NCBI RefSeq assembly: GCF_963921235.1
Contig: NC_086107.1
Span: forward strand, 98,272,001-98,336,000
Direction: 5' to 3'
Length of the DNA stretch: 64,000 bases
From: Mobula hypostoma
Lineage: Eukaryota
The translations under genes and the position numbers were made by a program. Shown piece after piece: positions 7,895 to 64,000 of this stretch (position 1 is its first letter; each line of letters begins with the position of its first letter). The notes under the pieces were generated by a model that worked only from the letters and a program-made list of their open reading frames with translations, was not told where the DNA came from and searched no databases.

Positions 7895-8895
7895 AAATAA
7901 TTTTATTTATTTATTGAGAATCAGTGTGAAATAGGCCCTTCCGACCTTTCGAGGCACACCACTGAGCAATCCCTCATTTCATAGACAATAGACAATAGGT
8001 GCAGGAGTAGGTCATTCAACCCTTCGAGCCAGCACCACCATTCACTGTGATCATGGCTGATCATCCACAATCAGTACCCCCTTCCTGCCTTCTCCCCATA
8101 TCCCTTCACTCCGCTATCTTTAAGAGCTCTATCTAACTCTTTCTTGAAACAATCCAGAGGATTGGCCTCCACTGCCTTCTGAGGCAAAGCATTCCACAGA
8201 ACCACAACCCTCTGTGTGAAGAAGTTTTTCCTCAACTCCGTTCTAAATTGTCTACCCCTTATTCTTAAACTGTGGCCTCTGGTTCTGGACTCCCCCAACA
8301 TCGGAAACATGTTCCCTGCCTCTAGCATGTCCAATCCCTTAATAATCTTATATGTTTCAATCAGATCCCCTCTCATTCTAAATTCCAGTGTATACAAGCC
8401 CAGTTGCTCCAATCTTTCAACATATGACAGCCCTGCCATCCTGGGAATTAACCTTGTGAACCTACGCTGCACTCTCTCAATAGCTAGAATGCCCTTCCTC
8501 AAATTTGGAGACCAAAACTGTACACAATACTCCAGGTGTAGTCTCACCAGGGCCCTGTACAACTGCAGAAGGACCTCTTTGCTCCTATACTCAATTCCCC
8601 TTATTATGAAGGCCAACATGCCATTAGCTTTCCTCACTGCCTGCTGTACCTGCATGCTTGCTTTCAGTGACTGATGAACAAGGGATAATCCTAGCCTAAT
8701 CACGGGATAATTTACAATGACCAATTAACACACCAACCAGTAGGTGTTTGGACTGTGGGAGGAAACGGGAGCACTGGGAGGAATCCCATGCGGTCACGGG
8801 GAGAACGTAAAAACTACTTACAGGCAGTAGTTGGAATTGAACCCCGGTCGCTGGTATTGTAAAGCGTTGTGCTAACCACTACACTACCATGCCGC
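7895..8895 (-). mobile_element. tRNA-derived V-SINE interrupted by a CR1 insertion
   Basis: Minus strand starts gcggcatggtagtgtagtggttagc (box A) ... ggttcaattcc (box B), then a V-domain-like ttctccccgtgaccgcatggg...ttcctcccacagtccaaa; the 3' part resumes at 7895-7979. Confidence 0.7.
7981..8683 (-). mobile_element. CR1 3' fragment (RT C-terminus), (CTATTGT)n tail subfamily
   Basis: ORF 8071-8724 reads LYRALVRLHLEYCVQFWSP...RKNFFTQRVV; 3' stem-loop and 7-bp tail repeat at 7981-7997. Confidence 0.9.
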
Positions 8896-30855: not shown

Positions 30856-32163
30856 ATACATACATACCACACAGAACATGCCAAGCGATAAAGCAACAAC
30901 AGCAAAACTAGCCCCATTCCTCGCTCCAATGAACCCAGCCACGTACAGTCTTCTAAGCCCAGGACAGGCTGGTGGCTCCCTGCCTCCAGTCTCCGACAGA
31001 ACACTGGGGGTGTCCAGTGAGTTTTGAGCTGTGTCCATGGAGAGGAGTGCAGGGCTGGCTCTCAAATTGATGACCTCTCTCAGCAAGTGTCATTGTGTAA
31101 GGGTGTTGACTATGTCTCTCCCTCTTTACCCAGTTTGCTACTTCATGCATTTCCCCCTTCATTCCCCTCCACAGATGATCCATGAGCTGCTGAGCTCCTG
31201 CCGTGTTTTGTTTGTTGATCCCGATTCCAGGGTCTGTAGACTCTTGTGTCTTCACTGTTCCACTGGCCTTTCTCACTCTAAACTATCTCCCCGGAATCGG
31301 TTTTGTCTCAGGTTTTCTGCACCTGCACCATTTAGTCCTGGCCTACGTCTGGCATAAGATATCCTCTTTCCACAGAAGCTGCCTGACCTGAGGGATTTTC
31401 CCCAACATTCTCCTTCATTCCACAGTTGCAATGGGTTAAGTTCCTCTTCTCTGTCCTCCCTCCACCTCCACGCCTCCTGACTGACCAGCTGAGTATTTTT
31501 CATCCTCTTCTAGTCCACACCCTTCTTCACCACGGGCAGAAGTCATGCAACCTCTCCTGGTCCCTGCCCAATCACAGCTGTCCCTTTGGTTCCTGCCAAC
31601 CATTCTATGTGTTAAAACATGCTTTCTTTTCAAATCTTCCCAGTTGTGGTAAAAAACATCATCAAAAAATTTAACTCTGTTCAAAGTTCATCTTTTTGTC
31701 ATCTGATTGTACATTTATAGAACCAAATGAAACTATGTTCCTCCGGACCATGGTACACCCACAAAGCATACATCACACACAGCCCATGAAAGAAAATATT
31801 ACCATAAATAAAGGGTGGCAGGGTGGAGATACATTGCTGCCAAAGCAGGTATAAAGTGCAGCTTCCTTCTGATAGCCTGCAGGTCATCCTTGGGCAAGGT
31901 GTAGCACCTGCTAAGCTCCCCACTCCTTGCCCCGTCCCCCGATCAGGGTCACGTGAAACCATGGGAGCTGGTGGTGGATGGTTGTATGAGTAGCTGGTGC
32001 ATATCACAAGTCCTGGTTGACGCCAGGCAGACAATTTCTGAAGAGTATTGATAACCTCTGGCAGAAGAAATTCCTCCTCACCTCAGTGTTAATGGAACGC
32101 CCCTTGCCCCTTTATTCTGAGCCTGGGCCCTGAGATCTTTGACACTCATACTAATGGAAATAT

Positions 32164-32858
32164 CATAGAAACATAGAAACATAGAAAATAGGTGCAGGAG
32201 TAGGCCATTCGGCCCTTTGAGCCTGCACCACCATTTATTATGATCATGGCTGATCATCCAACTCAGAACCCTGCCCCAGCCTTCCCTCCATACCCCCTGA
32301 CCCCCGTAGCCACAAGGGCCATATCTAACTCCCTCTTAAATATAGCCAATGAACTGGCCTCAACTGTTTCCTGTGGCAGAGAATTCCACAGATTCACCAC
32401 TCTCTGTGTGAAGAAGTTTTTCCTAATCTCGGTCCTAAAAGGCTTCCCCTCTATCCTCAAACTGTGGCCCCTCGTTTTGGACTTCCCCAACATCGGGAAC
32501 AATCTTCCTGCATCTAGCCTGTCCAATCCCTTTAGGATTTTATACATTTCAATCAGATCCCCCCTCAATCTTCTAAATTCCAACGAGTACAAGCCCAGTT
32601 CATCCAGTCTTTCTTCATATGAAAGTCCCGCCATCCCAGGAATCAATCTGGTGAACCTTCTTTGTACTCCCTCTATGGCAAGGATGTCTTTCCTCAGATT
32701 AGGGGACCAAAACTGCACTCAATACTCCAGGTGTGGTCTCACCAAGGCCTTGTACAACTGCAGTAGTACCTCCCTGCTCCTGTACTCGAATCCTCTCGCT
32801 ATAAATGCCAGCATACCATTCGCCTTTTTCACCGCCTGCTGTACCTGCATGCCCACTT
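32164..32858 (-). mobile_element. Young 5'-truncated CR1
   Basis: ORF 32263-32718 nearly identical to the end of 36753-37868; (TTTCTATG)n tail. Confidence 0.92.
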
Positions 32859-35934: not shown

Positions 35935-38420
35935 CCCCGCCCCCTGCTGTACTCACTGTACCCCCATGATTGTGTAGCCAAGTTTCCATCGAACTCAATA
36001 TATAAGTTTGCTGATGACGCCACAATTGCAGGCCGTATCTCAGGTAATGATGAGATTGAGTACAGAGAGGAAGTTAAGAACCCGGTGGCATGGTGCGAAG
36101 ACAATAACCTATCCCTCAACATCAGCAAGACGAAGGAATTGGTTGTTGACTTCAGAAGGAGTAGCGGACCTCATGACCCCATCTACATCGGTGGTGCACA
36201 GATGGAACAGGTCAAAAGCTTTAAGTTCCTCGGGGTCAATATCACAAATGACCTGACTTGGTCCAACCAAGCAGAGTCCACTGCCAAGAAGGCCCACCAG
36301 CGCCTTTACTTCCTGAGAAACGTAAAGAAATTTGGCCTGTCCCCTAAAACCCTCACTAATTTTTATAGATGCACCGTAGAAAGCATTCTTCTAGGGTGTA
36401 TCACAACCTGGTATGGAAGTTGTCCTGTCCAAGACTGGAAGAAGCTGCAGAAGATAATTTTTCAAAACTCGTTAGATTCTGGACTAGTTCCTGAGGATTG
36501 GAGGGTGGCTAATGTAACCCCACTTTTTAAAAAAGGAGGGAGAGAGAAACCGGGGAATTATAGACCGGTTAGCCTAACGTCGGTGGTGGGGAAACTGCTG
36601 GAGTCAGTTATCAAAGATGTGATAACAGCACATTTGGAAAGCGGTGAAATGATCGGACAAAGTCAGCATGGATTTGTGAAAGGAAAACCATGTCTGACGA
36701 ATCTCATAGAATTTTTTGAGGGTGTAACTAGTAGAGTGGATGGGGAGAACCAGTGGATGTGGTGTATTTGGATTTTCAAAAGGCTTTTGACAAGGTCCCA
36801 CACAGGAGATTAGTGTGCAAACTTAAAGCACATGGTATTGGGGGTAAGGTATTGGTGTGGGTGGAGAATTGGTTAGCAGACAGGAAGCAAAGAGTGGGAA
36901 TAAACGGGACCTTTTCAGAATGGCAGGCAGTGACTAGTGGGGTACCGCAAGGCTCAGTGCTGGGACCCCAGTTGTTTACAATATATATTAATGACTTGGA
37001 TGAGGGAATTAAATGCAGCATCTCCAAGTTTGCGGATGACACAAAGCTGGGTGGCAGTGTTAGCTGTGAGGAGGATGCTAAGAGGATGCAGGGTGACTTG
37101 GATAGGTTGGGTGAGTGGGCAAATTCATGGCAGATGCAATTTAATGTGGATAAATGTGAAGTTATCCACTTTGGTGGCAAAAATAGGAAAACAGATTATT
37201 ATCTGAATGGTGGCCGATTAGGAAAAGGGGAGGTGCAACGAGACCTGGGTGTCATTATACACCAGTCATTGAAAGTGGGCATGCAGGTACAGCAGGCGGT
37301 GAAAAAGGCGAATGGTATGCTGGCATTTATAGCGAGAGGATTCGAGTACAGGAGCAGGGAGGTACTACTGCAGTTGTACAAGGCCTTAGTGAGACCACAT
37401 CTGGAGTATTGTGTGCAGTTTTGGTCCCCTAATCTGAGGAAAGACATCTTTGCCATAGAGGGAGTACAAAGAAGGTTCACCAGATTGATTCCTGGGATGG
37501 CAGGACTTTCATATGAAGAAAGACTGGATGAACTGGGCTTGTACTCGTTGGAATTTAGAAGATTGAGGGGGGATCTGATTGAAACGTATAAAATCCTAAA
37601 GGGATTGGACAGGCTAGATGCAGGAAGATTGTTCCCGATGTTGGGGAAGTCCAGAACGAGGGGCCACAGTTTGAGGATAGAGGGGAAGCCTTTTAGGACC
37701 GAGATTAGGAAAAACTTCTTCACACAGAGAGTGGTGAATCTGTGGAATTCTCTGCCACAGGAAACAGTTGAGGCCAGTTCATTGGCTATGTTTAAGAGGG
37801 AGTTAGATATGGCCCTTGTGGCTACGGGGGTCAGGGGGTATGGAGGGAAGGCTGGGGCGGGGTTCTGAGTTGGATGATCAGCCATGATCATAATAAATGG
37901 CGGTGCAGGCTCGAAGGGACGAATGGCCTACTCCTGCACCTATTTTCTATGTTTCTATGTTTCTAAGATCATGAACACAGTCCAGCACATCACACAAACC
38001 AATCTTCCGTCCTTGGACTCACTTTACACCGCACGCTGTCGGAGCAGTGCTGCCGGGATAATCAAGGACACGACCCACCCAGCCAACACACTTTTCATCC
38101 CTCTTCCCTCCGGGAGAAGGCTCAGGAGCTTGAAGACTCGTACGGCCAGATTTGGGAACAGCTTCTTTCCATCTGTGATAAGACTGCTGAACGGATCCTG
38201 ACCCAGATCTGGGCCATACCCTCCAAATATCTGGACTTGCCTCTCGGTTTTTTTGCACTACCTTACTTTCCCTTTTCTATTTATGATTTATAATTAAAAT
38301 TTTTATTATATTTACTATGATTTGTACTCCAGGGAGCGTGAAGCTCAGAATCAAATATCACTGTGATGATTGTACGCTCTAGTATCAATTGTTTGGCGAC
38401 GATAAAGTAAAGTAAAGTAA
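35935..38420 (+). mobile_element. Young Rex1/Babar LINE 3' part split by a CR1
   Basis: PLLYSLYPHDC...KFADDATI...KKLQK at 35935-36455 resumes IMNTVQHIT...SFFPSVIRLLN at 37965-38201; (TAAAG)n tail near 38400-38420. Confidence 0.88.
36456..37964 (+). mobile_element. Young 5'-truncated CR1 (RT domain) with a 1-bp deletion near 36742
   Basis: Near-identical to 61740-63242; TSD aagat at 36451-36455 and 37965-37969. Confidence 0.93.
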
Positions 38421-39976: not shown

Positions 39977-42900
39977 GTTCACAACAGAGGGATGGGAACC
40001 AGTGCAGAGAGACAGAGGGGTGTAAAGTGAGCGTAGAAGCAAAAAGTACAAAGGGGAAAAGTAAAAGTGGCAGGTCGACAAATCCAGGGCAAGCATTAAA
40101 AAGGGCTAAGAGAGTTGTAAAAGAGTGCCTGAAGGCTTTATGTGTCAATGCAAGGAGCATTCGTAATAAGGTGGATGAATTGAAAGTGCAGATTGTTATT
40201 AATGATTATGATATAGTTGGGATCACAGAGACATGGCTCCAGGGTGACCAGGGATGGGAGCTCAACGTTCAGGGATATTCAATATTCAGGAGGGATAGAC
40301 ACGAAGGAAGGGGAGGTGGGGTGGCGTTGCTGGTTAAAAAAGAGATTAACGCAATAGAAAGGAAGGACATAAGCCGGGAAGATGTGGAATCGATATGGGT
40401 AGAGCTGCGTAACACTAAGGGGCAGAAGACGCTGGTGGGAGTTGTGTACAGGCCACCTAACAGTAGTAGTGAGGTCGGAGATGGTATTAAACAGGAAATT
40501 AGAAATGTGTGCAATAAAGGAACAGCAGTTATAATGGGTGACTTCAATCTACATGTAGACTGGGTGAACCAAATTGGTAAAGGTGCTGAGGAAGAGGATT
40601 TCTTGGAATGTATGCGGGATGGTTTTTTGAACCAACATGTCGAGGAACCGACTAGAGAGCAGGCTATTCTGGACTGGGTTTTGAGCAATGAGGAAGGGTT
40701 AATTAGCGATCTTGTCGTGAGAGGCCCCTTGGGTAAGAGTGACCATAATATGGTGGAATTCTTCATTAACATGGAGAGTGACGTAGTTAATTCAGAAACA
40801 AAGGTTCTGAACTTAAAGAGGGGTAACTTTGAAGGTATGAGACATGAATTAGCTAAGATAGACTGGCAAATGACACTTCAAGGATTGACGGTGGATATGC
40901 AATGGCAGGCATTTAAAGGTTGCATGGATGAACTACAACAATTGTTCATCCCAGTTTGGCAAAAGAATAAATCAAGGAAGGTAGTGCACCCGTGGCTGAC
41001 AAGAGAAATTAGGGATAGTATCAATTCCAAAGAAGTAGCATACAAATTAGCCAGAGAAAGTGGCTCACCTGAGGACTGGGAGAAATTCAGAGTTCAGCAG
41101 AGGAGGACAAAGGGCTTAATTAGGAAGGGGAAAAAAGATTATGAGAGAAAACTGGCAGAGAACATAAAAACGGACTGTAAAAGCTTTTATAGATATGTAA
41201 AAAGGAAAAGACTGATAAAGACAAATGTAGGTCCCCTGCAAACAGAAACAGGTGAATTGATTATGGGGAGCAAGGACATGGCAGACCAATTGAATAATTA
41301 CTTTGGTTCTGTCTTCACTAAGGAGGACATAAATAATCTTCCAGAAATAGTAAGGGACAGAGGGTCCAGTGAGATGGAGGAACTGAGCGAAATACATGTT
41401 AGTAGGGAAGTGGTGTTAGGTAAATTGAAGGGATTGAAGGCAGATAAATCCCCAGGGCCAGATGGTCTGCATCCCAGAGTGCTTAAGGAAGTGGCCCAAG
41501 AAATAGTGGATGCATTAGTGATAATTTTTCAAAACTCGTTAGATTCTGGACTAGTTCCTGAGGATTGGAGGGTGGCTAATGTAACCCCACTTTTTAAAAA
41601 AGGAGGGAGAGAGAAACCGGGGAATTATAGGCCGGTTAGCCTAACGTCGGTGGTGGGGAAACTGCTGGAGTCAGTTATCAAGGATGTGATAACAGCACAT
41701 TTGGAAAGCGGTGAAATGATCGGACAAAGTCAGCATGGATTTGTGAAAGGAAAATCATGTCTGACGAATCTCATAGAATTTTTTGAGGATGTAACTAGTA
41801 GAGTGGATAGGGGAGAACCAGTGGATGTGGTATATTTGGATTTTCAAAAGGCTTTTGACAAGGTCCCACATAGGAGATTAGTGTGCAAACTTAAAGCACA
41901 CGGTATTGGGGGTAAGGTATTGGTGTGGGTGGAGAATTGGTTAGCAGACAGGAAGCAAAGAGTGGGAATAAACGGGACCTTTTCAGAATGGCAGGCGGTG
42001 ACTAGTGGGGTACCGCAAGGCTCAGTGCTGGGCCCCCAGTTGTTTACAATATATATTAATGACTTGGATGAGGGAATTAAATGCAGCATCTCCAAGTTTG
42101 CGGATGACACGAAGCTGGGTGGCAGTGTTAGCAGTGAGGAGGATGCTAAGAGGATGCAGGGTGACTTGGATAGGTTGGGTGAGTGGGCAAACTCATGGCA
42201 GATGCAATTTAATGTGGATAAATGTGAAGTTATCCACTTTGGTGGCAAAAATAGGAAAACAGATTATTATCTGAATGGTGGCCGATTAGGAAAAGGGGAG
42301 GTGCAACGAGACCTGGGTGTCATTATACACCAGTCATTGAAAGTGGGCATGCAGGTACAGCAGGCGGTGAAAAAGGCGAACGGTATGCTGGCATTTATAG
42401 CGAGAGGATTCGAGTACAGGAGCAGGGAGGTACTACTGCAGTTGTACAAGGCCTTGGTGAGACCACACCTGGAGTATTGTGTGCAGTTTTGGTCCCCTAA
42501 TCTGAGGAAAGACATCTTTGCCATAGAGGGAGTACAAAGAAGGTTCACCAGATTGATTCCTGGGATGGCAGGTCTTTCATATGAAGAAAGACTGGATGAA
42601 CTGGGCTTGTACTCGTTGGAATTTAGAAGATTGAGGGGGGATCTGATTGAAACGTATAAGATCCTAAAGGGATTGGACAGGCTAGATGCAGGAAGATTGT
42701 TCCCGATGTTGGGGAGGTCTAGAACGAGGGGTCACAGTTTGAGGATAGAGGGGAAGCCTTTTAGGACCGAGGTTAGGAAAAACTTCTTCACACAGAGAGT
42801 GGTGAATCTGTGGAATTCTCTGCCACAGCAAACTGTTGAGGCCAGTTCATTAGCTATGTTTAAAAGGAAGTTAGATATGGCCCTTGTGGCTACAGGGGTC

Positions 42901-43029
42901 AGGGGGTATGGAGGGAAGGCTGGGTTCTGAGTTGGATGATCAGCCATGATCATAATAAATGGCGGTGCAGGCTCGAAGGGCCGAATGGCCTACTCCTGCA
43001 CCTATTTTCTATGTTTCTATGTTTCTATG
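39977..43029 (+). mobile_element. 5'-truncated young CR1 retaining almost all of ORF2, inserted in an older CR1
   Basis: Colinear with 60193-63245 (offset 20216); the older CR1 host reads ...aggccaaaagggcc | atgaaatgcccttg across the insertion. Confidence 0.95.
40027..42930 (+). CDS. CR1 ORF2, APE endonuclease plus reverse transcriptase (uninterrupted, but no ORF1 or promoter)
   Basis: NARSI, GITETW, VYRPP, GDFN, SDH endonuclease motifs; QHGF, LDFQKAFD, GVPQGSVLGP, FADD RT motifs. The GTG start is only the ORF-finder choice. Confidence 0.9.
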   Translation: MSVEAKSTKGKSKSGRSTNPGQALKRAKRVVKECLKALCVNARSIRNKVDELKVQIVINDYDIVGITETWLQGDQGWELNVQGYSIFRRDRHEGRGGGVALLVKKEINAIERKDISREDVESIWVELRNTKGQKTLVGVVYRPPNSSSEVGDGIKQEIRNVCNKGTAVIMGDFNLHVDWVNQIGKGAEEEDFLECMRDGFLNQHVEEPTREQAILDWVLSNEEGLISDLVVRGPLGKSDHNMVEFFINMESDVVNSETKVLNLKRGNFEGMRHELAKIDWQMTLQGLTVDMQWQAFKGCMDELQQLFIPVWQKNKSRKVVHPWLTREIRDSINSKEVAYKLARESGSPEDWEKFRVQQRRTKGLIRKGKKDYERKLAENIKTDCKSFYRYVKRKRLIKTNVGPLQTETGELIMGSKDMADQLNNYFGSVFTKEDINNLPEIVRDRGSSEMEELSEIHVSREVVLGKLKGLKADKSPGPDGLHPRVLKEVAQEIVDALVIIFQNSLDSGLVPEDWRVANVTPLFKKGGREKPGNYRPVSLTSVVGKLLESVIKDVITAHLESGEMIGQSQHGFVKGKSCLTNLIEFFEDVTSRVDRGEPVDVVYLDFQKAFDKVPHRRLVCKLKAHGIGGKVLVWVENWLADRKQRVGINGTFSEWQAVTSGVPQGSVLGPQLFTIYINDLDEGIKCSISKFADDTKLGGSVSSEEDAKRMQGDLDRLGEWANSWQMQFNVDKCEVIHFGGKNRKTDYYLNGGRLGKGEVQRDLGVIIHQSLKVGMQVQQAVKKANGMLAFIARGFEYRSREVLLQLYKALVRPHLEYCVQFWSPNLRKDIFAIEGVQRRFTRLIPGMAGLSYEERLDELGLYSLEFRRLRGDLIETYKILKGLDRLDAGRLFPMLGRSRTRGHSLRIEGKPFRTEVRKNFFTQRVVNLWNSLPQQTVEASSLAMFKRKLDMALVATGVRGYGGKAGF

Positions 43030-45001
43030 AAATGCCCTTGACAAGTAGGATTAAAGAGAATCCAAGGATTCTCATACTTACATTACAAACAAGAGGATAA
43101 TTAGAGAGGGGGTAGGGCCACTCAGAGGATGTGGGAGAGGTACCAAACGAGTGCTTTGCATTGATTTCACCAAGGAGAAGTACACGAAGGATACTGGGTT
43201 TATTGCGGGCCAGGCTCATGTACTTGGGCATTTTGAGGTTAAGGAGGAGGAGGTGTTTCTGGGTCCTTTGAAGAGCATCAACGTGGATAAGCCTCCAGGG
43301 CCCGACAGGATATGTCTCAGGTCATTGAAGCAGACAAGAAGGGAAATTATTCAGGCCTTGATGAAGATCTTTGTATCCTCACTAGCAACAGAACTCCCAG
43401 AGGTTTGGAGAGCAGCCAGTGTTATTCCTTTGTTCAGGAAGGAAAATAGAGATAATCCAGGAAACTACAGGCCAGCCAGCTTCACATCAATGGTAGGGAA
43501 GCTGTTGGAGACATTTTTTAGGGATAGGATTTACTCACATTGAATAAACTGTAGCATTATGTGGAACAAGTCACGTCTTACAACTTGATTGAGTAGGTGG
43601 CAAAGGTGATTGCTGAGAGTAGGGCAGTGGATGCGGTCTACATGGATTTTGGTAAGGCATTTATCCCACATGATAGGCCAATCCAGAAGATTAAGATGTA
43701 TGGGATCTGTGATGACTTGGTAGTGTGGACCCAGGAGAGGCTGCCATTGAAGACAGAGGGTAGTGGTCAACAGGATTTACTCTGACCTGGGGGTCCGTGA
43801 CCAGTCATGCTCAGCCAGGATCGGGTGCTGGATCTCTGTGTTTGTGATACATATAAATGATTCGGATAGCTGGGTTAGTGGGTTTGAAGATGATACAAAA
43901 GTAGGTGGAGTTGTGTACGGTGTAGAGGGCTGTAGATACAATGGAATATAGATCTGTTGCAGATATGGATAGGACCATTAATAGATAAATAAATAGATAG
44001 ATACTTTATTGATCCCAAAGGAAATTACAGTGTCACAGTAGCATTACAAGTGTACAGATAAACAAATATTAGAAGAGAAGTAAGAAAGAATAAAAAATAA
44101 GTTACCTCAAACAGTCTAACAGGAGGGGTGGTCATCACTTCCCCAGCTATAGCTTGATTCATTATAGAGCCTAATGGCTGAGGGTAAGAATGACCTCATA
44201 TAGCGCTCCTTGGAGCAGCACAGTTGTCTTAGTCTATTAGTAAAAGTGCTTCTCTGTTCAGCCAAAGTGCCATGTAGAGGGTGAGGAATTGTCAGGATTT
44301 CCCTTTGTTCTACCACAGCCTCTAGTGTGTCCAGTTTGACTCCTATAACAGAGCCAGCCTTTCTAATCAGTTTATTGAGCCTGTTGGCATCACCCATGTT
44401 GATGCCATTGCCCCAGCACACCACCGCAGAGAAGATTGTACTGGCGACAACGGGCTGGTAGAACATGTGAAGGCGAAGCCTGCGTACTCCAAAGGTCCTC
44501 AGTCTTCTCCGGAAGTAGAGGCGACTCTGGCCCTTCTTGTACACAGCCTCTGTGATGGTGCTCCACTCAAGTCTGTCGTGCAGGTGCACCCAGGTACTTG
44601 AGCATTGATGTACAGAAGATCCAAGTCCATAGCCTTCCTGAAAGTATCCATGCAAGAAGATAGGGTGGGAAAGAAGGTAAATGGCAAACTTGCCTTCATT
44701 GGTTGGGGCATTGAGTTAGAGGGCTCAGGAAGTCATGTTGTAGCTACATAAAACTTTGGTTAGGGTGCACTTGGAGTATTGCGTGTAATTCTGGTTGCCC
44801 AGGAGGGGTATGGAAAGAGTGCAGAAGAGGTTCACCAAGAGGCTGCCTGGATAAGGAGAAGTTGGACAAACTTGGGCTGTTTTCTCTGCAGCACTGGAGG
44901 CTGAGAGATGTTTATTAAATAATGAGAGGCACACTTAGGTAGACATTCAGAATCTTTATCCCAGGGTAGAAAGGTCAAGTACAAGAGGACATGGATTTAA
45001 G

Positions 45002-58100: not shown

Positions 58101-58605
58101 AGTTTGGTTTAGAAGTCACATAATTAGTTAGATGGAGGTCACCATGTGCAATGAGGTTGTTTCAATTGATTGTAGTAAAAATACATCTGTATCTGAAAAG
58201 TTCAATTGCTGGAGAGTCAGTATCCTGGCAAAAACTACACCATGAAGACAAGCCAACACTCCAAGCAACTCCGTGGAAAGGTTATTGAAAAGCACAAGTC
58301 AGGAGATGGATACAAGAAAATTTCAAAGTCACTGAATATCCCTTGGAGTACAGTTAAATCAATCATCAAGAAATGGAAAGAATATGGCACAGCTGTAAAT
58401 CTGCCTAGAGCAGGCTGTCCTCAAAAACTGAGTGAGGGAGGCCGCCAAGAAACCTGTGACAATTCTGGAGGAGTTACAAGCTTCAATGCCTGAGACGGGA
58501 GAGACTGTACATACAACAAAGGTTGCCCGGTTTCTTCACCAGTTGCAGCTTTATGGGAGAGTGGCGAAGAGAAAGCCACTGTTGAAAAAAATCACATGAA
58601 ATGTG

Positions 58606-59043
58606 ATTTCGTTATTTTTTTTTCTCCAACGGCTTTCTGAGAGGCAGGACTGCGCAGGCGTGTGACGTCGGGCAGTGCAGCGCGGCAGATTTAAAAGGGC
58701 AGACATCCTGCTTCGGATTTGATTCGAAGAAGGAGTCTGAGAGTCTGAGTGGGAGTGCCGAGAAAGAGATTTTTGAAATTTTCGTTATTTTTTTTTCTCC
58801 AACGGCTTTCTGAGAGGCGGGACTGCGCAGGCGTGTGACGTCGGGCAGTGCAGCGCGGCAGATTTAAAAGGGCAGACATCCTGCTTCGGATTTGATTCGA
58901 AGAAGGAGTCTGAGAGTCTGAGTGGGAGTGCCGAGAAAGAGATTTTTGAAATTTTCGTTATTTTTTTTCTCCAACGGCTTTCTGAGAGGCGGGACTGCGC
59001 AGGCGTGTGACGTCGGGCAGTGCAGCGCGGCAGATTTAAAAGG
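58606..59043 (+). promoter_or_regulatory. Tandem 172-173 bp CpG-rich 5' UTR monomers (about 2.5 copies) with promoter-like motifs
   Basis: ctccaacggc recurs at 58624, 58797 and 58969; units carry ggcggg (ggcagg in the first), tgcgcaggcg, tgacgtc and tttaaaa in that order. Confidence 0.75.
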
Positions 59044-59205: not shown

Positions 59206-60141
59206 ATGACTGTGAGGGCAGTTTGCTGTTCTCGGTGTCGGATGTGGGAGGCCCTGGAGTCTCCAAGCCTCCCGGACGTCTACATCTGCGCCAAGTGCAT
59301 CGAGATGCAGCTCCTAAGGGACCGCGTTACGGAACTGGAGCTGCAGCTCGATGACCTTCGTCTGGTCAGGGAGAGCGAGGAGGTGATAGAGAGGAGTGGA
59401 AGGCAGGTGGTCACGCCGGGGCCACGGGAGGCAGACAAGTGGGTCACGGTTAGGAGAGGGAAGGGGAAAAGGCAGGTGATGAGGAGTACCCCGGCGGCTG
59501 TGCCCCTTAACAACAGGTACTCCTGTTTGAGTACTGTTGGGGGGGACAGCTTACCCGGGGGAAGCGACAGTGGCCCTGCCTCCGGCACAGAGTCTGGCCC
59601 TGTAGCTCAGAAGGGTAGGGCAAGGAAGAGGAGGGCAGTTGTGATAGGGGACTCGATAGTAAGGGGGTCAGATAGGCGATTCTGTGGACGCAGTCCAGAG
59701 ACTCGGATGGTAGTTTGCCTCCCTGGTGCCAGGGTCCGGGATATTTCTGATCGTGTCCAAGATATCCTGAAGTGGGAGGGTGAAGAGCCAGAGGTCCTGG
59801 TACATATAGGTACCAATGACATAGGTAGGAAAAGGGATGAGGTCCTGAAAGAAGAATATAGGGAGCTAGGAAGGGAGTTGAGAAAAAGGACCGCAAAGGT
59901 AGTAATCTCGGGATTACTGCCTGTGCCACGCGACAGTGAGAGTAGGAATGCGATGAGGTGGAGGATAAATGCGTGGCTGAGGGATTGGAGCAGGGGGCAG
60001 GGATTCAAGTTTTTGGATCATTGGGACCTCTTTTGGCGTAGGTGTGACCTGTACAAAAAGGACGGGTTACACTTAAATCCTAGGGGGACCAATATCCTGG
60101 CAGGGAGATTAGCGGGGGCTACTGAGGTGACTTTAAACTAG
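59206..60141 (+). CDS. CR1 ORF1 protein (311 aa): Zn finger, coiled coil, SGNH/GDSL esterase
   Basis: First ATG at 59206; CSRC...CAKC, heptad LLRDRVTELELQLDDL, GDS / PGA / HIGTND / DGLH blocks. Confidence 0.93.
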   Translation: MTVRAVCCSRCRMWEALESPSLPDVYICAKCIEMQLLRDRVTELELQLDDLRLVRESEEVIERSGRQVVTPGPREADKWVTVRRGKGKRQVMRSTPAAVPLNNRYSCLSTVGGDSLPGGSDSGPASGTESGPVAQKGRARKRRAVVIGDSIVRGSDRRFCGRSPETRMVVCLPGARVRDISDRVQDILKWEGEEPEVLVHIGTNDIGRKRDEVLKEEYRELGRELRKRTAKVVISGLLPVPRDSESRNAMRWRINAWLRDWSRGQGFKFLDHWDLFWRRCDLYKKDGLHLNPRGTNILAGRLAGATEVTLN

Positions 60142-63100
60142 AATGGTTGGGGGGTGGGAATCAAATTAAAGCGGCTAGGTGTGAGGAGGTTAGTTCACAA
60201 CAGAGGGATGGGAACCAGTGCAGAGAGACAGAGGAGTGTAAAGTGAGCGTAGAAGCAAAAAGTACAAAGGGGAAAAGTAAAAGTGGCAGGCCGACAAATC
60301 CAGGGCAAGCATTAAAAAGGGCTAAGAGAGTTGTAAAAGAGCGCCTGAAGGCTTTATGTGTCAATGCAAGGAGCATTCGTAATAAGGTGGATGAATTGAA
60401 AGTGCAGATTGTTATTAATGATTATGATATAGTTGGGATCACAGAGACATGGCTCCAGGGTGACCAGGGATGGGAGCTCAACGTTCAGGGATATTCAATA
60501 TTCAGGAGGGATAGACACGAAGGAAGGGGAGGTGGGGTGGCGTTGCTGGTTAAAAAAGAGATTAACGCAATAGAAAGGAAGGACATAAGCCGGGAAGATG
60601 TGGAATCGATATGGGTAGAGCTGCGTAACACTAAGGGGCAGAAGACGCTGCTGGGAGTTGTGTACAGGCCACCTAACAGTAGTAGTGAGGTCGGAGATGG
60701 TATTAAACAGGAAATTAGAAATGTGTGCAATAAAGGAACAGCAGTTATAATGGGTGACTTCAATCTACATGTAGACTGGGTGAACCAAATTGGTAAAGGT
60801 GCTGAGGAAGAGGATTTCTTGGAATGTATGCGGGATGGTTTTTTGAACCAACATGTCGAGGAACCGACTAGAGAGCAGGCTATTCTGGACTGGGTTTTGA
60901 GCAATGAGGAAGGGTTAATTAGCGATCTTGTCGTGAGAGGCCCCTTGGGTAAGAGTGACCATAATATGGTGGAATTCTTCATTAACATGGAGAGTGACGT
61001 AGTTAATTCAGAAACAAAGGTTCTGAACTTAAAGAGGGGTAACTTTGAAGGTATGAGACATGAATTAGCTAAGATAGACTGGCAAATGACACTTCAAGGA
61101 TTGACGGTGGATATGCAATGGCAGGCATTTAAAGGTTGCATGGATGAACTACAACAATTGTTCATCCCAGTTTGGCAAAAGAATAAATCAAGGAAGGTAG
61201 TGCACCCGTGGCTGACAAGAGAAATTAGGGATAGTATCAATTCCAAAGAAGTAGCATACAAATTAGCCAGAGAAAGTGGCTCACCTGAGGACTGGGAGAA
61301 ATTCAGAGTTCAGCAGAGGAGGACAAAGGGCTTAATTAGGAAGGGGAAAAAAGATTATGAGAGAAAACTGGCAGAGAACATAAAAACGGACTGTAAAAGC
61401 TTTTATAGATATGTAAAAAGGAAAAGACTGATAAAGACAAATGTAGGTCCCCTGCAAACAGAAACAGGTGAATTGATTATGGGGAGCAAGGACATGGCAG
61501 ACCAATTGAATAATTACTTTGGTTCTGTCTTCACTAAGGAGGACATAAATAATCTTCCAGAAATAGTAAGGGACAGAGGGTCCAGTGAGATGGAGGAACT
61601 GAGCGAAATACATGTTAGTAGGGAAGTGGTGTTAGGTAAATTGAAGGGATTGAAGGCAGATAAATCCCCAGGGCCAGATGGTCTGCATCCCAGAGTGCTT
61701 AAGGAAGTGGCCCAAGAAATAGTGGATGCATTAGTGATAATTTTTCAAAACTCGTTAGATTCTGGACTAGTTCCTGAGGATTGGAGGGTGGCTAATGTAA
61801 CCCCACTTTTTAAAAAAGGAGGGAGAGAGAAACCGGGGAATTATAGGCCGGTTAGCCTAACGTCGGTGGTGGGGAAACTGCTGGAGTCAGTTATCAAGGA
61901 TGTGATAACAGCACATTTGGAAAGCGGTGAAATGATCGGACAAAGTCAGCATGGATTTGTGAAAGGAAAATCATGTCTGACGAATCTCATAGAATTTTTT
62001 GAGGATGTAACTAGTAGAGTGGATAGGGGAGAACCAGTGGATGTGGTATATTTGGATTTTCAAAAGGCTTTTGACAAGGTCCCACACAGGAGATTAGTGT
62101 GCAAACTTAAAGCACATGGTATTGGGGGTAAGGTATTGGTGTGGGTGGAGAATTGGTTAGCAGACAGGAAGCAAAGAGTGGGAATAAACGGGACCTTTTC
62201 AGAATGGCAGGCGGTGACTAGTGGGGTACCGCAAGGCTCAGTGCTGGGACCCCAGTTGTTTACAATATATATTAATGACTTGGATGAGGGAATTAAATGC
62301 AGCATCTCCAAGTTTGCGGATGACACGAAGCTGGGTGGCAGTGTTAGCAGTGAGGAGGATGCTAAGAGGATGCAGGGTGACTTGGATAGGTTGGGTGAGT
62401 GGGCAAACTCATGGCAGATGCAATTTAATGTGGATAAATGTGAAGTTATCCACTTTGGTGGCAAAAATAGGAAAACAGATTATTATCTGAATGGTGGCCG
62501 ATTAGGAAAAGGGGAGGTGCAACGAGACCTGGGTGTCATTATACACCAGTCATTGAAAGTGGGCATGCAGGTACAGCAGGCGGTGAAAAAGGCGAACGGT
62601 ATGCTGGCATTTATAGCGAGAGGATTCGAGTACAGGAGCAGGGAGGTACTACTGCAGTTGTACAAGGCCTTGGTGAGACCACACCTGGAGTATTGTGTGC
62701 AGTTTTGGTCCCCTAATCTGAGGAAAGACATCCTTGCCATAGAGGGAGTACAAAGAAGGTTCACCAGATTGATTCCTGGGATGGCAGGTCTTTCATATGA
62801 AGAAAGACTGGATGAACTGGGCTTGTACTCGTTGGAATTTAGAAGATTGAGGGGGGATCTGATTGAAACGTATAAGATCCTAAAGGGATTGGACAGGCTA
62901 GATGCGGGAAGATTGTTCCCGATGTTGGGGAGGTCTAGAACGAGGGGTCACAGTTTGAGGATAGAGGGGAAGCCTTTTAGGACCGACGTTAGGAAAAACT
63001 TCTTCACACAGAGAGTGGTGAATCTGTGGAATTCTCTGCCACAGCAAACTGTTGAGGCCAGTTCATTAGCTATGTTTAAAAGGAAGTTAGATATGGCCCT

Positions 63101-63146
63101 TGTGGCTACAGGGGTCACGGGGTATGGAGGGAAGGCTGGGTTCTGA
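60138..63146 (+). CDS. CR1 ORF2 (APE endonuclease plus RT), open from 60126; start given at the predicted frameshift entry
   Basis: All endonuclease and RT motifs intact; no in-frame ATG before 60750. Confidence 0.93.
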   Translation, partial: LEWLGGGNQIKAARCEEVSSQQRDGNQCRETEECKVSVEAKSTKGKSKSGRPTNPGQALKRAKRVVKERLKALCVNARSIRNKVDELKVQIVINDYDIVGITETWLQGDQGWELNVQGYSIFRRDRHEGRGGGVALLVKKEINAIERKDISREDVESIWVELRNTKGQKTLLGVVYRPPNSSSEVGDGIKQEIRNVCNKGTAVIMGDFNLHVDWVNQIGKGAEEEDFLECMRDGFLNQHVEEPTREQAILDWVLSNEEGLISDLVVRGPLGKSDHNMVEFFINMESDVVNSETKVLNLKRGNFEGMRHELAKIDWQMTLQGLTVDMQWQAFKGCMDELQQLFIPVWQKNKSRKVVHPWLTREIRDSINSKEVAYKLARESGSPEDWEKFRVQQRRTKGLIRKGKKDYERKLAENIKTDCKSFYRYVKRKRLIKTNVGPLQTETGELIMGSKDMADQLNNYFGSVFTKEDINNLPEIVRDRGSSEMEELSEIHVSREVVLGKLKGLKADKSPGPDGLHPRVLKEVAQEIVDALVIIFQNSLDSGLVPEDWRVANVTPLFKKGGREKPGNYRPVSLTSVVGKLLESVIKDVITAHLESGEMIGQSQHGFVKGKSCLTNLIEFFEDVTSRVDRGEPVDVVYLDFQKAFDKVPHRRLVCKLKAHGIGGKVLVWVENWLADRKQRVGINGTFSEWQAVTSGVPQGSVLGPQLFTIYINDLDEGIKCSISKFADDTKLGGSVSSEEDAKRMQGDLDRLGEWANSWQMQFNVDKCEVIHFGGKNRKTDYYLNGGRLGKGEVQRDLGVIIHQSLKVGMQVQQAVKKANGMLAFIARGFEYRSREVLLQLYKALVRPHLEYCVQFWSPNLRKDILAIEGVQRRFTRLIPGMAGLSYEERLDELGLYSLEFRRLRGDLIETYKILKGLDRLDAGRLFPMLGRSRTRGHSLRIEGKPFRTDVRKNFFTQRVVNLWNSLPQQTVEASSLAMFKRKLDMALVATGVTGYGGKAGF

Positions 63147-63179
63147 GTTGGATGATCAGCCATGATCATAATAAATGGC

Positions 63180-63245
63180 GGTGCAGGCTCGAAGGGCCGA
63201 ATGGCCTACTCCTGCACCTATTTTCTATGTTTCTATGTTTCTATG
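63180..63245 (+). other. CR1 3' recognition stem-loop and 8-bp terminal repeat
   Basis: ggtgcagg (63180-63187) pairs with cctgcacc (63211-63218), enclosing ggcc-gaat-ggcc; followed by TTTCTATG x3. Confidence 0.85.
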
Positions 63246-64000
63246 AAATCTCAGATAGAGTTTGCCAGAAGGCATGTGGGAGACTCTGATGTCAGTTGAA
63301 AGAAGGTTATACGGTCTGATGAAACCACCATCAGACTTAACGCTATGTTTGGCCTAAGACAAACACCGCACATCATCAAAAACACAACATCCCTACCGTG
63401 AAGCATGGTGGTGGCTGCATCGTGCTGTGGGGACGCTTCACTGCAGCAGGCCCTGGAAGGCTTGTGAAGGTGGAGGGTAAAATGAATCCAGCAAATACAG
63501 GGAAATCCTGGAGGAAAACCTGATGCAGTCTGCAAGAGAACTGCGACTTGGGAGAAGATTTGTTTTCCAGCAAGGCAATCACCCCAAGCGTAAAGCCAAA
63601 GCTACGCAAGAATGGCTTAAAAACAACAAAGGTAATGTCCAGGAGTGACAAAATGGAGACCTCAATCCGACTGAGAATTTGTGGCTGGACTTGAAAAGGG
63701 CTGTTCATTCACGATCCCCATGCAATCTGACAGAGCTTGAACAACTTCATAACAAAGAATGGGGAAAAAAATTGCATGTCCTGATGTGCAAAGCTGATAC
63801 AGACCTATCCACACAGACTCAAGGCTGTAATTGCTGCCAAAGGTACATCTACTAAATACTGACTTGAGGGGGGCAAATACTTGTGCAATCAATTATTTTG
63901 TGTTTTAGATTCAAAAATAATTTAGATCACTTTGTAGAGATCTGTTTTCACTTTGACATGAAAAAGTCTTTTACTGTTGATCAGTGTCAAAAAAGCCAAA

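Follow-up and report, generated by a model that had tools for sequence, protein, structure and literature searches.

The window analyzed in this study is a 64,000-nucleotide (nt) stretch of the Mobula hypostoma genome (contig NC_086107.1, positions 98,272,001 to 98,336,000). Toward its 3' end lies a long interspersed nuclear element (LINE) with two open reading frames (ORFs), which is, judging from its homologues and its 3' end, a young, full-length member of the CR1 clade. The ORF1 frame is open from stop to stop between 59116 and 60141, with the first ATG at 59206, and its translation matched Lipase_GDSL_2 in Pfam (E value, 3.7e-16). Cysteine columns were conserved in an alignment of 22 diverse ORF1 proteins, and the closest ORF1 match was a Mobula hypostoma protein with 98% identity. 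The ORF2 frame runs for 1006 codons without a stop and matched Exo_endo_phos (E value, 3.5e-12) and RVT_1 (E value, 1e-33). Both ORFs are intact in the window copy. They meet at a slippery heptamer that is conserved at the nucleotide level in distant relatives and that probably serves for programmed -1 ribosomal frameshifting from ORF1 into ORF2 (Table 1).

Table 1. Features of the CR1 element and of its ORF1/ORF2 junction, in window coordinates
Feature	Position	Strand	Description
173-bp tandem repeat	58607..59043	+	2.5 copies, 99% matches, directly 5' of ORF1 (Tandem Repeats Finder)
ORF1	59206..60141	+	311 codons and TAG; N-terminal Cys-rich motif and GDSL/SGNH esterase domain
ORF2 frame	60126..63146	+	-1 relative to ORF1; ~70-codon linker preceding APE endonuclease and reverse transcriptase
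Slippery heptamer T_TTA_AAC	60132..60138	+	in ORF1 phase; proposed -1 shift site
ORF1 stop TAG	60139..60141	+	abuts the heptamer
G6 run	60149..60154	+	starts at the 11th nt past the heptamer, between GG (60145-60146) and GGG (60156-60158); conserved candidate stimulator
3' untranslated region	63147..63245	+	ends with three octamers TTTCTATG at 63222-63245; CR1-type end, no poly(A)

The anatomy of the junction can be read directly from the sequence and agrees with what the original prediction had described. ORF1 ends with ACT TTA AAC TAG (60130-60141), with the heptamer in the X_XXY_YYZ phase before the stop, and the -1 frame is closed by a TGA at 60123-60125 and open from 60126 onward. The overlap between the two ORFs is 16 nt and contains the phased heptamer. 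The first in-frame ATG of ORF2, at 60750, is codon 207 counted from the heptamer and lies past the NARSI, ETW and YRPP motifs; in the stop-to-stop ORF2 frame, the Pfam endonuclease match begins at residue 93, and this ATG is residue 209. The sole nearby ATG (60143) belongs to the third frame, in which MVGGWESN is followed by a stop (8 codons), and an ORF2-frame AUG at the ORF1 stop, of the type found in SART1, is not present in the window. Downstream of the heptamer is a G-rich tract, with a GG starting after 6 nt and the G6 run from the 11th nt onward. The pentamer AACCA is found at 60213-60217.

Relatives of the element were obtained by scanning metagenome contigs with the alignment of 22 ORF1 proteins, which gave 42 loci with 23 to 55% identity to the window ORF1 (best segment). 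In 22 of these the stored DNA stops before the ORF1 stop, including one (L025) that still shows the heptamer and ends 13 nt later. Among the 20 loci with an ORF1 stop, [T/G]TTAAAC was found at the end of ORF1 in 16 and TTTAAAT in 1 (L013, in which the stop has been lost), and the heptamer was missing in 3: L029 and L039, which match the N-terminal esterase part only, and L036, which has a different C terminus. The 18 junction-bearing loci, at 24 to 39% ORF1 identity, were combined with the window to give 19 junctions, which were aligned by anchoring on the heptamer.

The heptamer is conserved across these junctions as a nucleotide sequence. It is exactly TTTAAAC in 17 of the 19, the others being GTTAAAC (L007) and TTTAAAT (L013), and all seven columns are at least 94% identical. 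The first base, which is the wobble position of the preceding codon, is T in 18/19 junctions, and the codon that this T closes is ACT, TCT, TAT, CAT, TGT, TTT or GCT, encoding seven amino acids (T, S, Y, H, C, F and A). Leucine is encoded by TTA in 19/19 and asparagine by AAC in 18/19. A stop codon follows directly in 16 of the 19 junctions (TAG in 14, TAA in 1 and TGA in 1). Every junction with enough downstream DNA (17/17) has a run of four to six Gs that begins 8 to 13 nt past the heptamer, in 14 cases at the 11th nt, and the codon just before the central GGG has G as its last base in every case (TTG, CAG, AAG, GCG or TCG), across different amino acids. The 60 nt upstream are 18 to 48% identical among representatives of five sequence groups, compared to 80 to 100% for the heptamer and stop. 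Third-codon positions in these 60 nt are 40 to 60% identical, and the heptamer is the sole conserved block of columns there in the 19-junction alignment. Because TTA, AAC and the wobble T have been kept while the upstream sequence has diverged, the constraint acts on the RNA or DNA sequence rather than on the protein. The 42 loci, together with the part of the window that was scanned, have 34 plus-strand matches to [T/G]TTAAAC with enough downstream DNA; a G-run follows 16 of them, which are exactly the sites at the end of ORF1, and none of the 18 matches elsewhere (0/18).

The frame relationship of the two ORFs is also maintained. Twelve loci have an ORF1 frame that is unbroken across the esterase match and has LN at its end. 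The long ORF2s that survive (L002, L004, L007, L011 and L012) are in the -1 frame and overlap ORF1 by 16 to 121 nt. The frame that starts at the first base of the heptamer reads FKL (VKL in L007), and in 11/19 junctions it stays open into the endonuclease motifs. Nine junctions have a -1-frame stop 3 to 9 nt upstream of the heptamer, and therefore the change of frame must fall within approximately 13 to 19 nt, where the heptamer sits. The first methionine of ORF2 is codon 59, past the NARS motif, in both L004 (963 codons) and L002, and these copies thus lack, like the window, a usable ORF2 AUG.

Variation close to the window copy was examined in contigs of four runs. None of 40 listed substitutions (of 317) fell in 60116-60171, and none of 7 listed indels fell between 60082 and 61000, both of which are weakly informative. 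The end of a divergent contig (run X13) reads GGGGAGGCTTTAAA at the same distance as in the window, which is a hint only. A scan of genome contigs with a narrowed alignment returned three weak matches (24 to 37% identity) in bacterial records and no LINE, and a scan of viral contigs found no relative. The pattern TTTAAACTAG-N6-8-GGGGG was also sought in viral contigs; none of its 40 matches was beside an esterase or an endonuclease/reverse transcriptase gene (0/40), and they were rejected as chance matches.

ORF1 proteins from databases gave a consistent picture at the C terminus. Of 120 homologues listed, 93 were complete, and 83 of the 93 ended in LN; several of the exceptions were one-step variants (TIN, AVN and YSN) or truncations. 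These homologues span rays, skates, sharks, coelacanth, frogs, turtles, squamates and birds, and the named sources include Mobula, Leucoraja, Hypanus, Hemitrygon, Pristis, Narcine, Stegostoma, Scyliorhinus, Mustelus, Pristiophorus, Latimeria, Xenopus, Hyla, several turtles, lizards, a snake and a hummingbird. When 1.84 billion cluster representatives (50% identity) were searched with a profile, LN was the end of 64 of the 121 representatives, a subset of the best 150 matches, in which the match reached the C-terminal region; the profile itself ends in LN, and therefore matches to its last positions lean toward LN. Another 10 of the 121 ended in GN (nine of them QGN: P0110, P0115, P0287, P0294, P0304, P0310, P0318, P0339 and P0377) and 2 in KN (SKN and GKN: P0313 and P0363). 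G_GGA_AAC and A_AAA_AAC are classical slippery heptamers, and QGN and xKN ends would fit CAG_GGA_AAC and NNA_AAA_AAC, respectively. This is a lead at the protein level; neither lineage was present among the 42 loci. Gene models that read through the junction show the ORF2-frame FKL, as in Hypanus (P0036, GFKLNLQGAG; P0052, GFKLDVQGAG) and in a model from the bird Limosa (P0148, GFKLEVKGEGDKT), which matches the metagenome group of L005, L011, L012 and L017. CR1 ORF1 or ORF2 sequences were also encountered under other names or hosts (P0022, P0026, P0052, P0063 and P0381). Examples are a Pseudomonas aeruginosa "SGNH/GDSL hydrolase" on a 4-kb contig, "40S ribosomal protein S24 isoform X2," "hydroxyacid oxidase 2 isoform X1" and a Tanacetum "hypothetical protein." Such records are likely to be contamination or chimeric gene models.

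The junction has the parts of a canonical -1 frameshift cassette, namely, a phased heptamer, an open -1 frame without a start of its own, and conservation that includes synonymous positions. Programmed -1 frameshifting that yields an ORF1-ORF2 fusion of ~1313 amino acids is the explanation that we favor, with a probability of roughly 0.7. Ribosomes translating ORF1 would meet U_UUA_AAC with UAG as the next codon, and some would slip back by one base, with tRNA-Leu re-pairing from UUA to UUU and tRNA-Asn from AAC to AAA. The slipped ribosomes would then decode CUA (60138-60140), GAA and UGG and continue through the linker, the endonuclease and the reverse transcriptase, giving the 311 amino acids of ORF1 followed by 1002 further codons, with EVTLN-LEWLGGGNQ at the junction. 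This product would be identical whether AAC occupied the A site or the P site at the moment of the slip. Ribosomes that did not slip would terminate and release the 311-amino-acid esterase protein. Conservation of the adjacent stop suggests that slow decoding of UAG contributes to the shift. LINEs need very little ORF2 protein (ORF2p), as is known from L1, and a shift of low efficiency could therefore suffice. Tandem -1 slippage is the simplest account of the locus, because the phased U_UUA_AAC is invariant, the -1 overlap is minimal and ORF2 lacks a start codon. We infer the slippage, its efficiency and the role of the fusion as the active form of ORF2p from these sequence features. The original prediction had proposed a -1 shift at this heptamer with a fusion of ~1310 amino acids and had named conservation of heptamer, phase and spacer as a check. 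The comparative evidence supports it: the heptamer is kept exactly in 17/19 junctions, and its phase, the stop, the -1 relation and the distance to the G-run have been retained as well.

Several observations weigh against a programmed frameshift and are gathered here and in the discussion of ribosome restart that follows. The 18 relative junctions form approximately 5 sequence groups rather than 18 independent cases, and several are decayed copies. LN is missing from 10/93 and 57/121 of the ORF1 C termini described above. There was no unusually stable fold in the 90 nt after the heptamer in 16 junctions (minimum free energy z scores, -1.6 to +1.7), and RNAalifold gave -0.73 and 0 kcal/mol for two groups, with 0 compensatory pairs. 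Structured frameshift stimulators usually lie 5 to 9 nt downstream of the slippery site, and the G-run starts 10 nt past the heptamer, beyond that range. Local folding, modelled without pseudoknots or long-range pairing, yielded no stable stem-loop starting 5 to 9 nt downstream. A hairpin (CCAGGC...GCCTGG) is present ~28 nt after the heptamer in the bird-like group (L005, 1257-1281; L017, 3525-3549; L012, ~462-487); it was missed by RNAalifold and is absent from the other groups.

The stimulators that had been guessed for the shift do not hold in the form proposed, apart from the conservation of the G-tract. Neither the G-quadruplex nor a pairing of tggtt with aacca is conserved: a three-tetrad motif was found in 0/16 junctions and a loose two-tetrad motif in 7/16, and the pairing of 60144-60148 with 60213-60217 lies outside the predicted fold. 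The G-run itself, on which the quadruplex guess was built, is conserved at a fixed distance. For the third guess, pausing at the stop, the conserved adjacent stop suggests a contribution of slow UAG decoding. No C-rich partner for the G-run was conserved between -200 and +400, and one was wholly absent in 5/16 junctions; Rfam returned just two sub-threshold chance matches. On the strength of its conservation, the G-run is nevertheless taken to be a real part of the signal. It might be speculated, by analogy, that the 10-nt spacing and the linear nature of the G-run recall the protein-dependent stimulators of PRRSV and the cardioviruses.

The principal competing explanation is that ORF2 is translated by termination and reinitiation, or from a non-AUG start, with ribosomes restarting just past the UAG in the ORF2 frame at an AUG or a near-cognate codon (UUG at 60147, or GUG). 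The G-run could then help to hold or position the 40S subunit, and the heptamer would be conserved for another reason. There is some evidence for restart. An ORF2-frame ATG is found one to two codons after CTA (codon 4 or 5 from the heptamer) in 4/17 junctions of relatives (L001, L005, L011 and L027); L003, L004 and L008 have GTG at that near-stop codon, and the window has TTG at codon 6. Some gene models from sharks and rays place a methionine near the G-run (P0382, MGGEGK; P0124 and P0127, MAGGWEP). The latter two, from the sawshark Pristiophorus japonicus, begin like the third-frame MVGGWES of the window (60143), and their homology to the window ORF2 frame begins only at about residue 29. 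The ORF2 of this sawshark subfamily may be AUG initiated just after the stop, with a different frame relation, which would make it the clearest possible exception to frameshifting. According to its title, a 1997 paper by Haas et al. describes chicken CR1 with "two closely spaced" ORFs. With these ORFs, the near-stop ATG and GTG codons and the Met-start models, restart seems plausible in some lineages. The failure to find a frameshift-stimulating structure also fits restart, and the mechanisms of SART1 and human L1 are of the restart kind according to the text available for PMC3708506 and PMC3894237. However, the would-be start at codon 5 varies, being TGG in the window and L017, TCG in L002, L012, L021, L038 and L013, GCA in L006 and GCG in L007. 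An ATG lies within 6 nt of the stop in only 8/17 junctions, spread over all three frames, and thus looks incidental. Furthermore, restart does not predict an invariant phased U_UUA_AAC, conservation at synonymous sites or a constant -1 relation. As a general explanation of the junction, it seems unlikely.

The conserved block might also have nothing to do with decoding. TTTAAAC-TAG-N7-GGGGG could be an RNA or DNA signal, for example for packaging or for the binding of ORF1p or a host factor; alternatively, the esterase protein could need the LN end. ORF2 would then be translated by other means, for example through internal entry or from a subgenomic or spliced RNA. The block is indeed conserved as a linear motif, and the G-run has neither a known decoding role nor a structure partner; internal entry is left open in the available text of a 2013 review of LINE translation (PMC3894237). 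However, a protein requirement for LN leaves unexplained why leucine is always TTA (1 of 6 codons), why AAC is kept and why the preceding wobble base is T, and an unrelated motif would have to match, by chance, one of the best eukaryotic slippery heptamers, in phase, inside a -1 overlap of 13 to 19 nt. A clean ORF1-ORF2 joint was seen in 0 of the 15 best-supported of 299 joints in the contigs of the four runs, which is weak evidence. A signal of this kind strikes us as quite improbable. Still less weight, close to none, can be given to the idea that a decayed or nonfunctional copy carries the heptamer by coincidence. A rough estimate puts the chance of a phased heptamer in any one copy at ~1%, given that ~32 of 16384 heptamers fit (with Y as A or U) and that the 16-nt overlap has ~4 phased positions. 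However, both ORFs are intact, near-identical copies exist and the motif recurs in 18 further junctions with diverged flanks; conservation of the heptamer in relatives rules chance out.

Beyond the junction, the window provides some information on the history of the element. The 173-bp tandem repeat probably represents 5' untranslated region or promoter monomers of the LINE, its membership in the element being uncertain. It resembles the promoter or 5' untranslated region monomers of mouse L1. Some CR1-group elements carry 5' repeat subunits of 100 to 500 bp, according to the portion available of a 2026 survey (PMC13343379), and an octamer repeat is named for a bird CR1 in the abstract of PMC2612034. 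The LINE family is young and recently active: over 3057 nt, a 5'-truncated copy within the window shows 99.6% identity, and among the 20 run rows with part of the stretch, 16 contained at least half of its sampled words. Other 5'-truncated copies in the window align as far as 63249-63252. Truncated copies of the same or related CR1 elements, all lacking the junction, lie at 39977-43033, 36453-37968, 32157-32858 (- strand), 7980-8676 (- strand) and elsewhere, with 64 to 99.6% identity. There is no second ORF1/ORF2 junction in the window, the remaining copies being 5' truncated and the nearest beginning at the equivalent of 60193. Open frames at 58197-58493 and 63341-63855, whose translations resemble a Tc1/mariner transposase in its N- and C-terminal parts (SLNIPWSTVKSIIKKWKEYG and NPTENLWLDLKRAV), flank the LINE, and because they lie on both sides, the LINE may sit inserted in a Tc1-like element.

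How the second ORF of a LINE is translated is an acknowledged open question, and the known answers, from human L1 and SART1, are restart mechanisms that make separate proteins. If the frameshift reading is correct, the reverse transcriptase would arrive covalently joined to the esterase protein, and the frameshift rate would set the stoichiometry of the two products. The signal would be a compact, testable element of ~25 nt, and U_UUA_AAC frameshifting would gain a widespread example from cellular genomes, one that apparently needs no pseudoknot. A more far-reaching model can be drawn from the same data and seems doubtful when taken as a whole. In it, esterase-type CR1 elements would make ORF2p only as a fusion, through a structure-independent -1 shift stimulated by the abutting UAG and by a linear G-tract 10 nt downstream to which a host G-tract binder or ORF1p is bound. 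The ratio of ORF1p to fusion would be self-regulated, the covalent link would provide cis-preference, and the QGN and xKN sister lineages would use G_GGA_AAC and A_AAA_AAC.

A full-text search found no published account of frameshifting at a CR1 ORF1/ORF2 junction; an earlier remark is possible in Kapitonov & Jurka 2003, Haas et al. 1997 or Kajikawa et al. 1997. The available text of PMC5009743, PMC3708506, PMC4255032, PMC11835228, PMC3894237, PMC13343379, PMC4120745 and PMC4316615 contains no report of a frameshift at a CR1 junction; among these sources are a 2016 review of recoding, a 2014 survey of ORF1 and a 2014 paper on amniote CR1. The word "frameshift" is absent from the accessible part of the 2013 review of LINE protein biogenesis (PMC3894237), and the accessible part of the 2026 survey of the CR1 group (PMC13343379) has 0 uses of "frameshift," "overlap," "slippery" or "stop codon." What is new is the junction DNA from 18 distant relatives, and the proposed recoding is of a known kind, placed here in non-LTR (long terminal repeat) retrotransposons.

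The closest parallel to the proposed site is the ORF1a/1b junction of coronaviruses and arteriviruses, at which an identical U_UUA_AAC fuses an upstream protein to the polymerase, and the G_UUA_AAC of equine arteritis virus corresponds to the GTTAAAC variant of L007. In these viruses, a pseudoknot lies 5 to 7 nt downstream and the stop is not adjacent, whereas CR1 has the stop directly after the heptamer and showed no conserved structure. The luteoviruses and dianthoviruses, such as barley yellow dwarf virus (GGGUUUU-UAG) and red clover necrotic mosaic virus (GGAUUUU-UAG), do have the stop directly after the heptamer, like CR1, and make their polymerase solely as a low-abundance fusion, as is proposed for CR1. 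They use a different heptamer and a bulged stem-loop with long-distance pairing, whereas no local structure was found in CR1. Linear elements at least 10 nt downstream that act without strong structure are known from PRRSV nsp2TF, with a C-rich motif ~11 nt downstream, and from the 2A-dependent site of cardioviruses; the CR1 motif is G-rich, unlike the C-rich motif of PRRSV. The gag-pol arrangement of retroviruses and LTR elements follows the same logic as that proposed for CR1, in that one mRNA gives much of a structural or accessory protein and little of a reverse transcriptase fusion, but CR1 is a non-LTR element without a protease to release the reverse transcriptase, and its ORF1 encodes an esterase rather than a capsid protein.

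Among non-LTR elements, Drosophila HeT-A (gag frameshift) and TART are cases in which expression has been tied to frameshifting or to ORFs that lie close together (Atkins et al. 2016; PMC5009743). However, HeT-A has no reverse transcriptase gene and, as far as the available text of that source extends, neither element has a conserved U_UUA_AAC joining ORF1 to an endonuclease/reverse transcriptase frame. SART1, with its UAAUG coupling, and human L1, with unconventional termination-reinitiation, resemble CR1 in that a bicistronic LINE RNA carries the ORF1 stop and the ORF2 start within a few nt of one another. According to the available parts of PMC3708506 and PMC3894237, both have an ORF2 AUG and make separate proteins, whereas the ORF2 in the window, in the -1 frame, follows a slippery heptamer and lacks a usable AUG.

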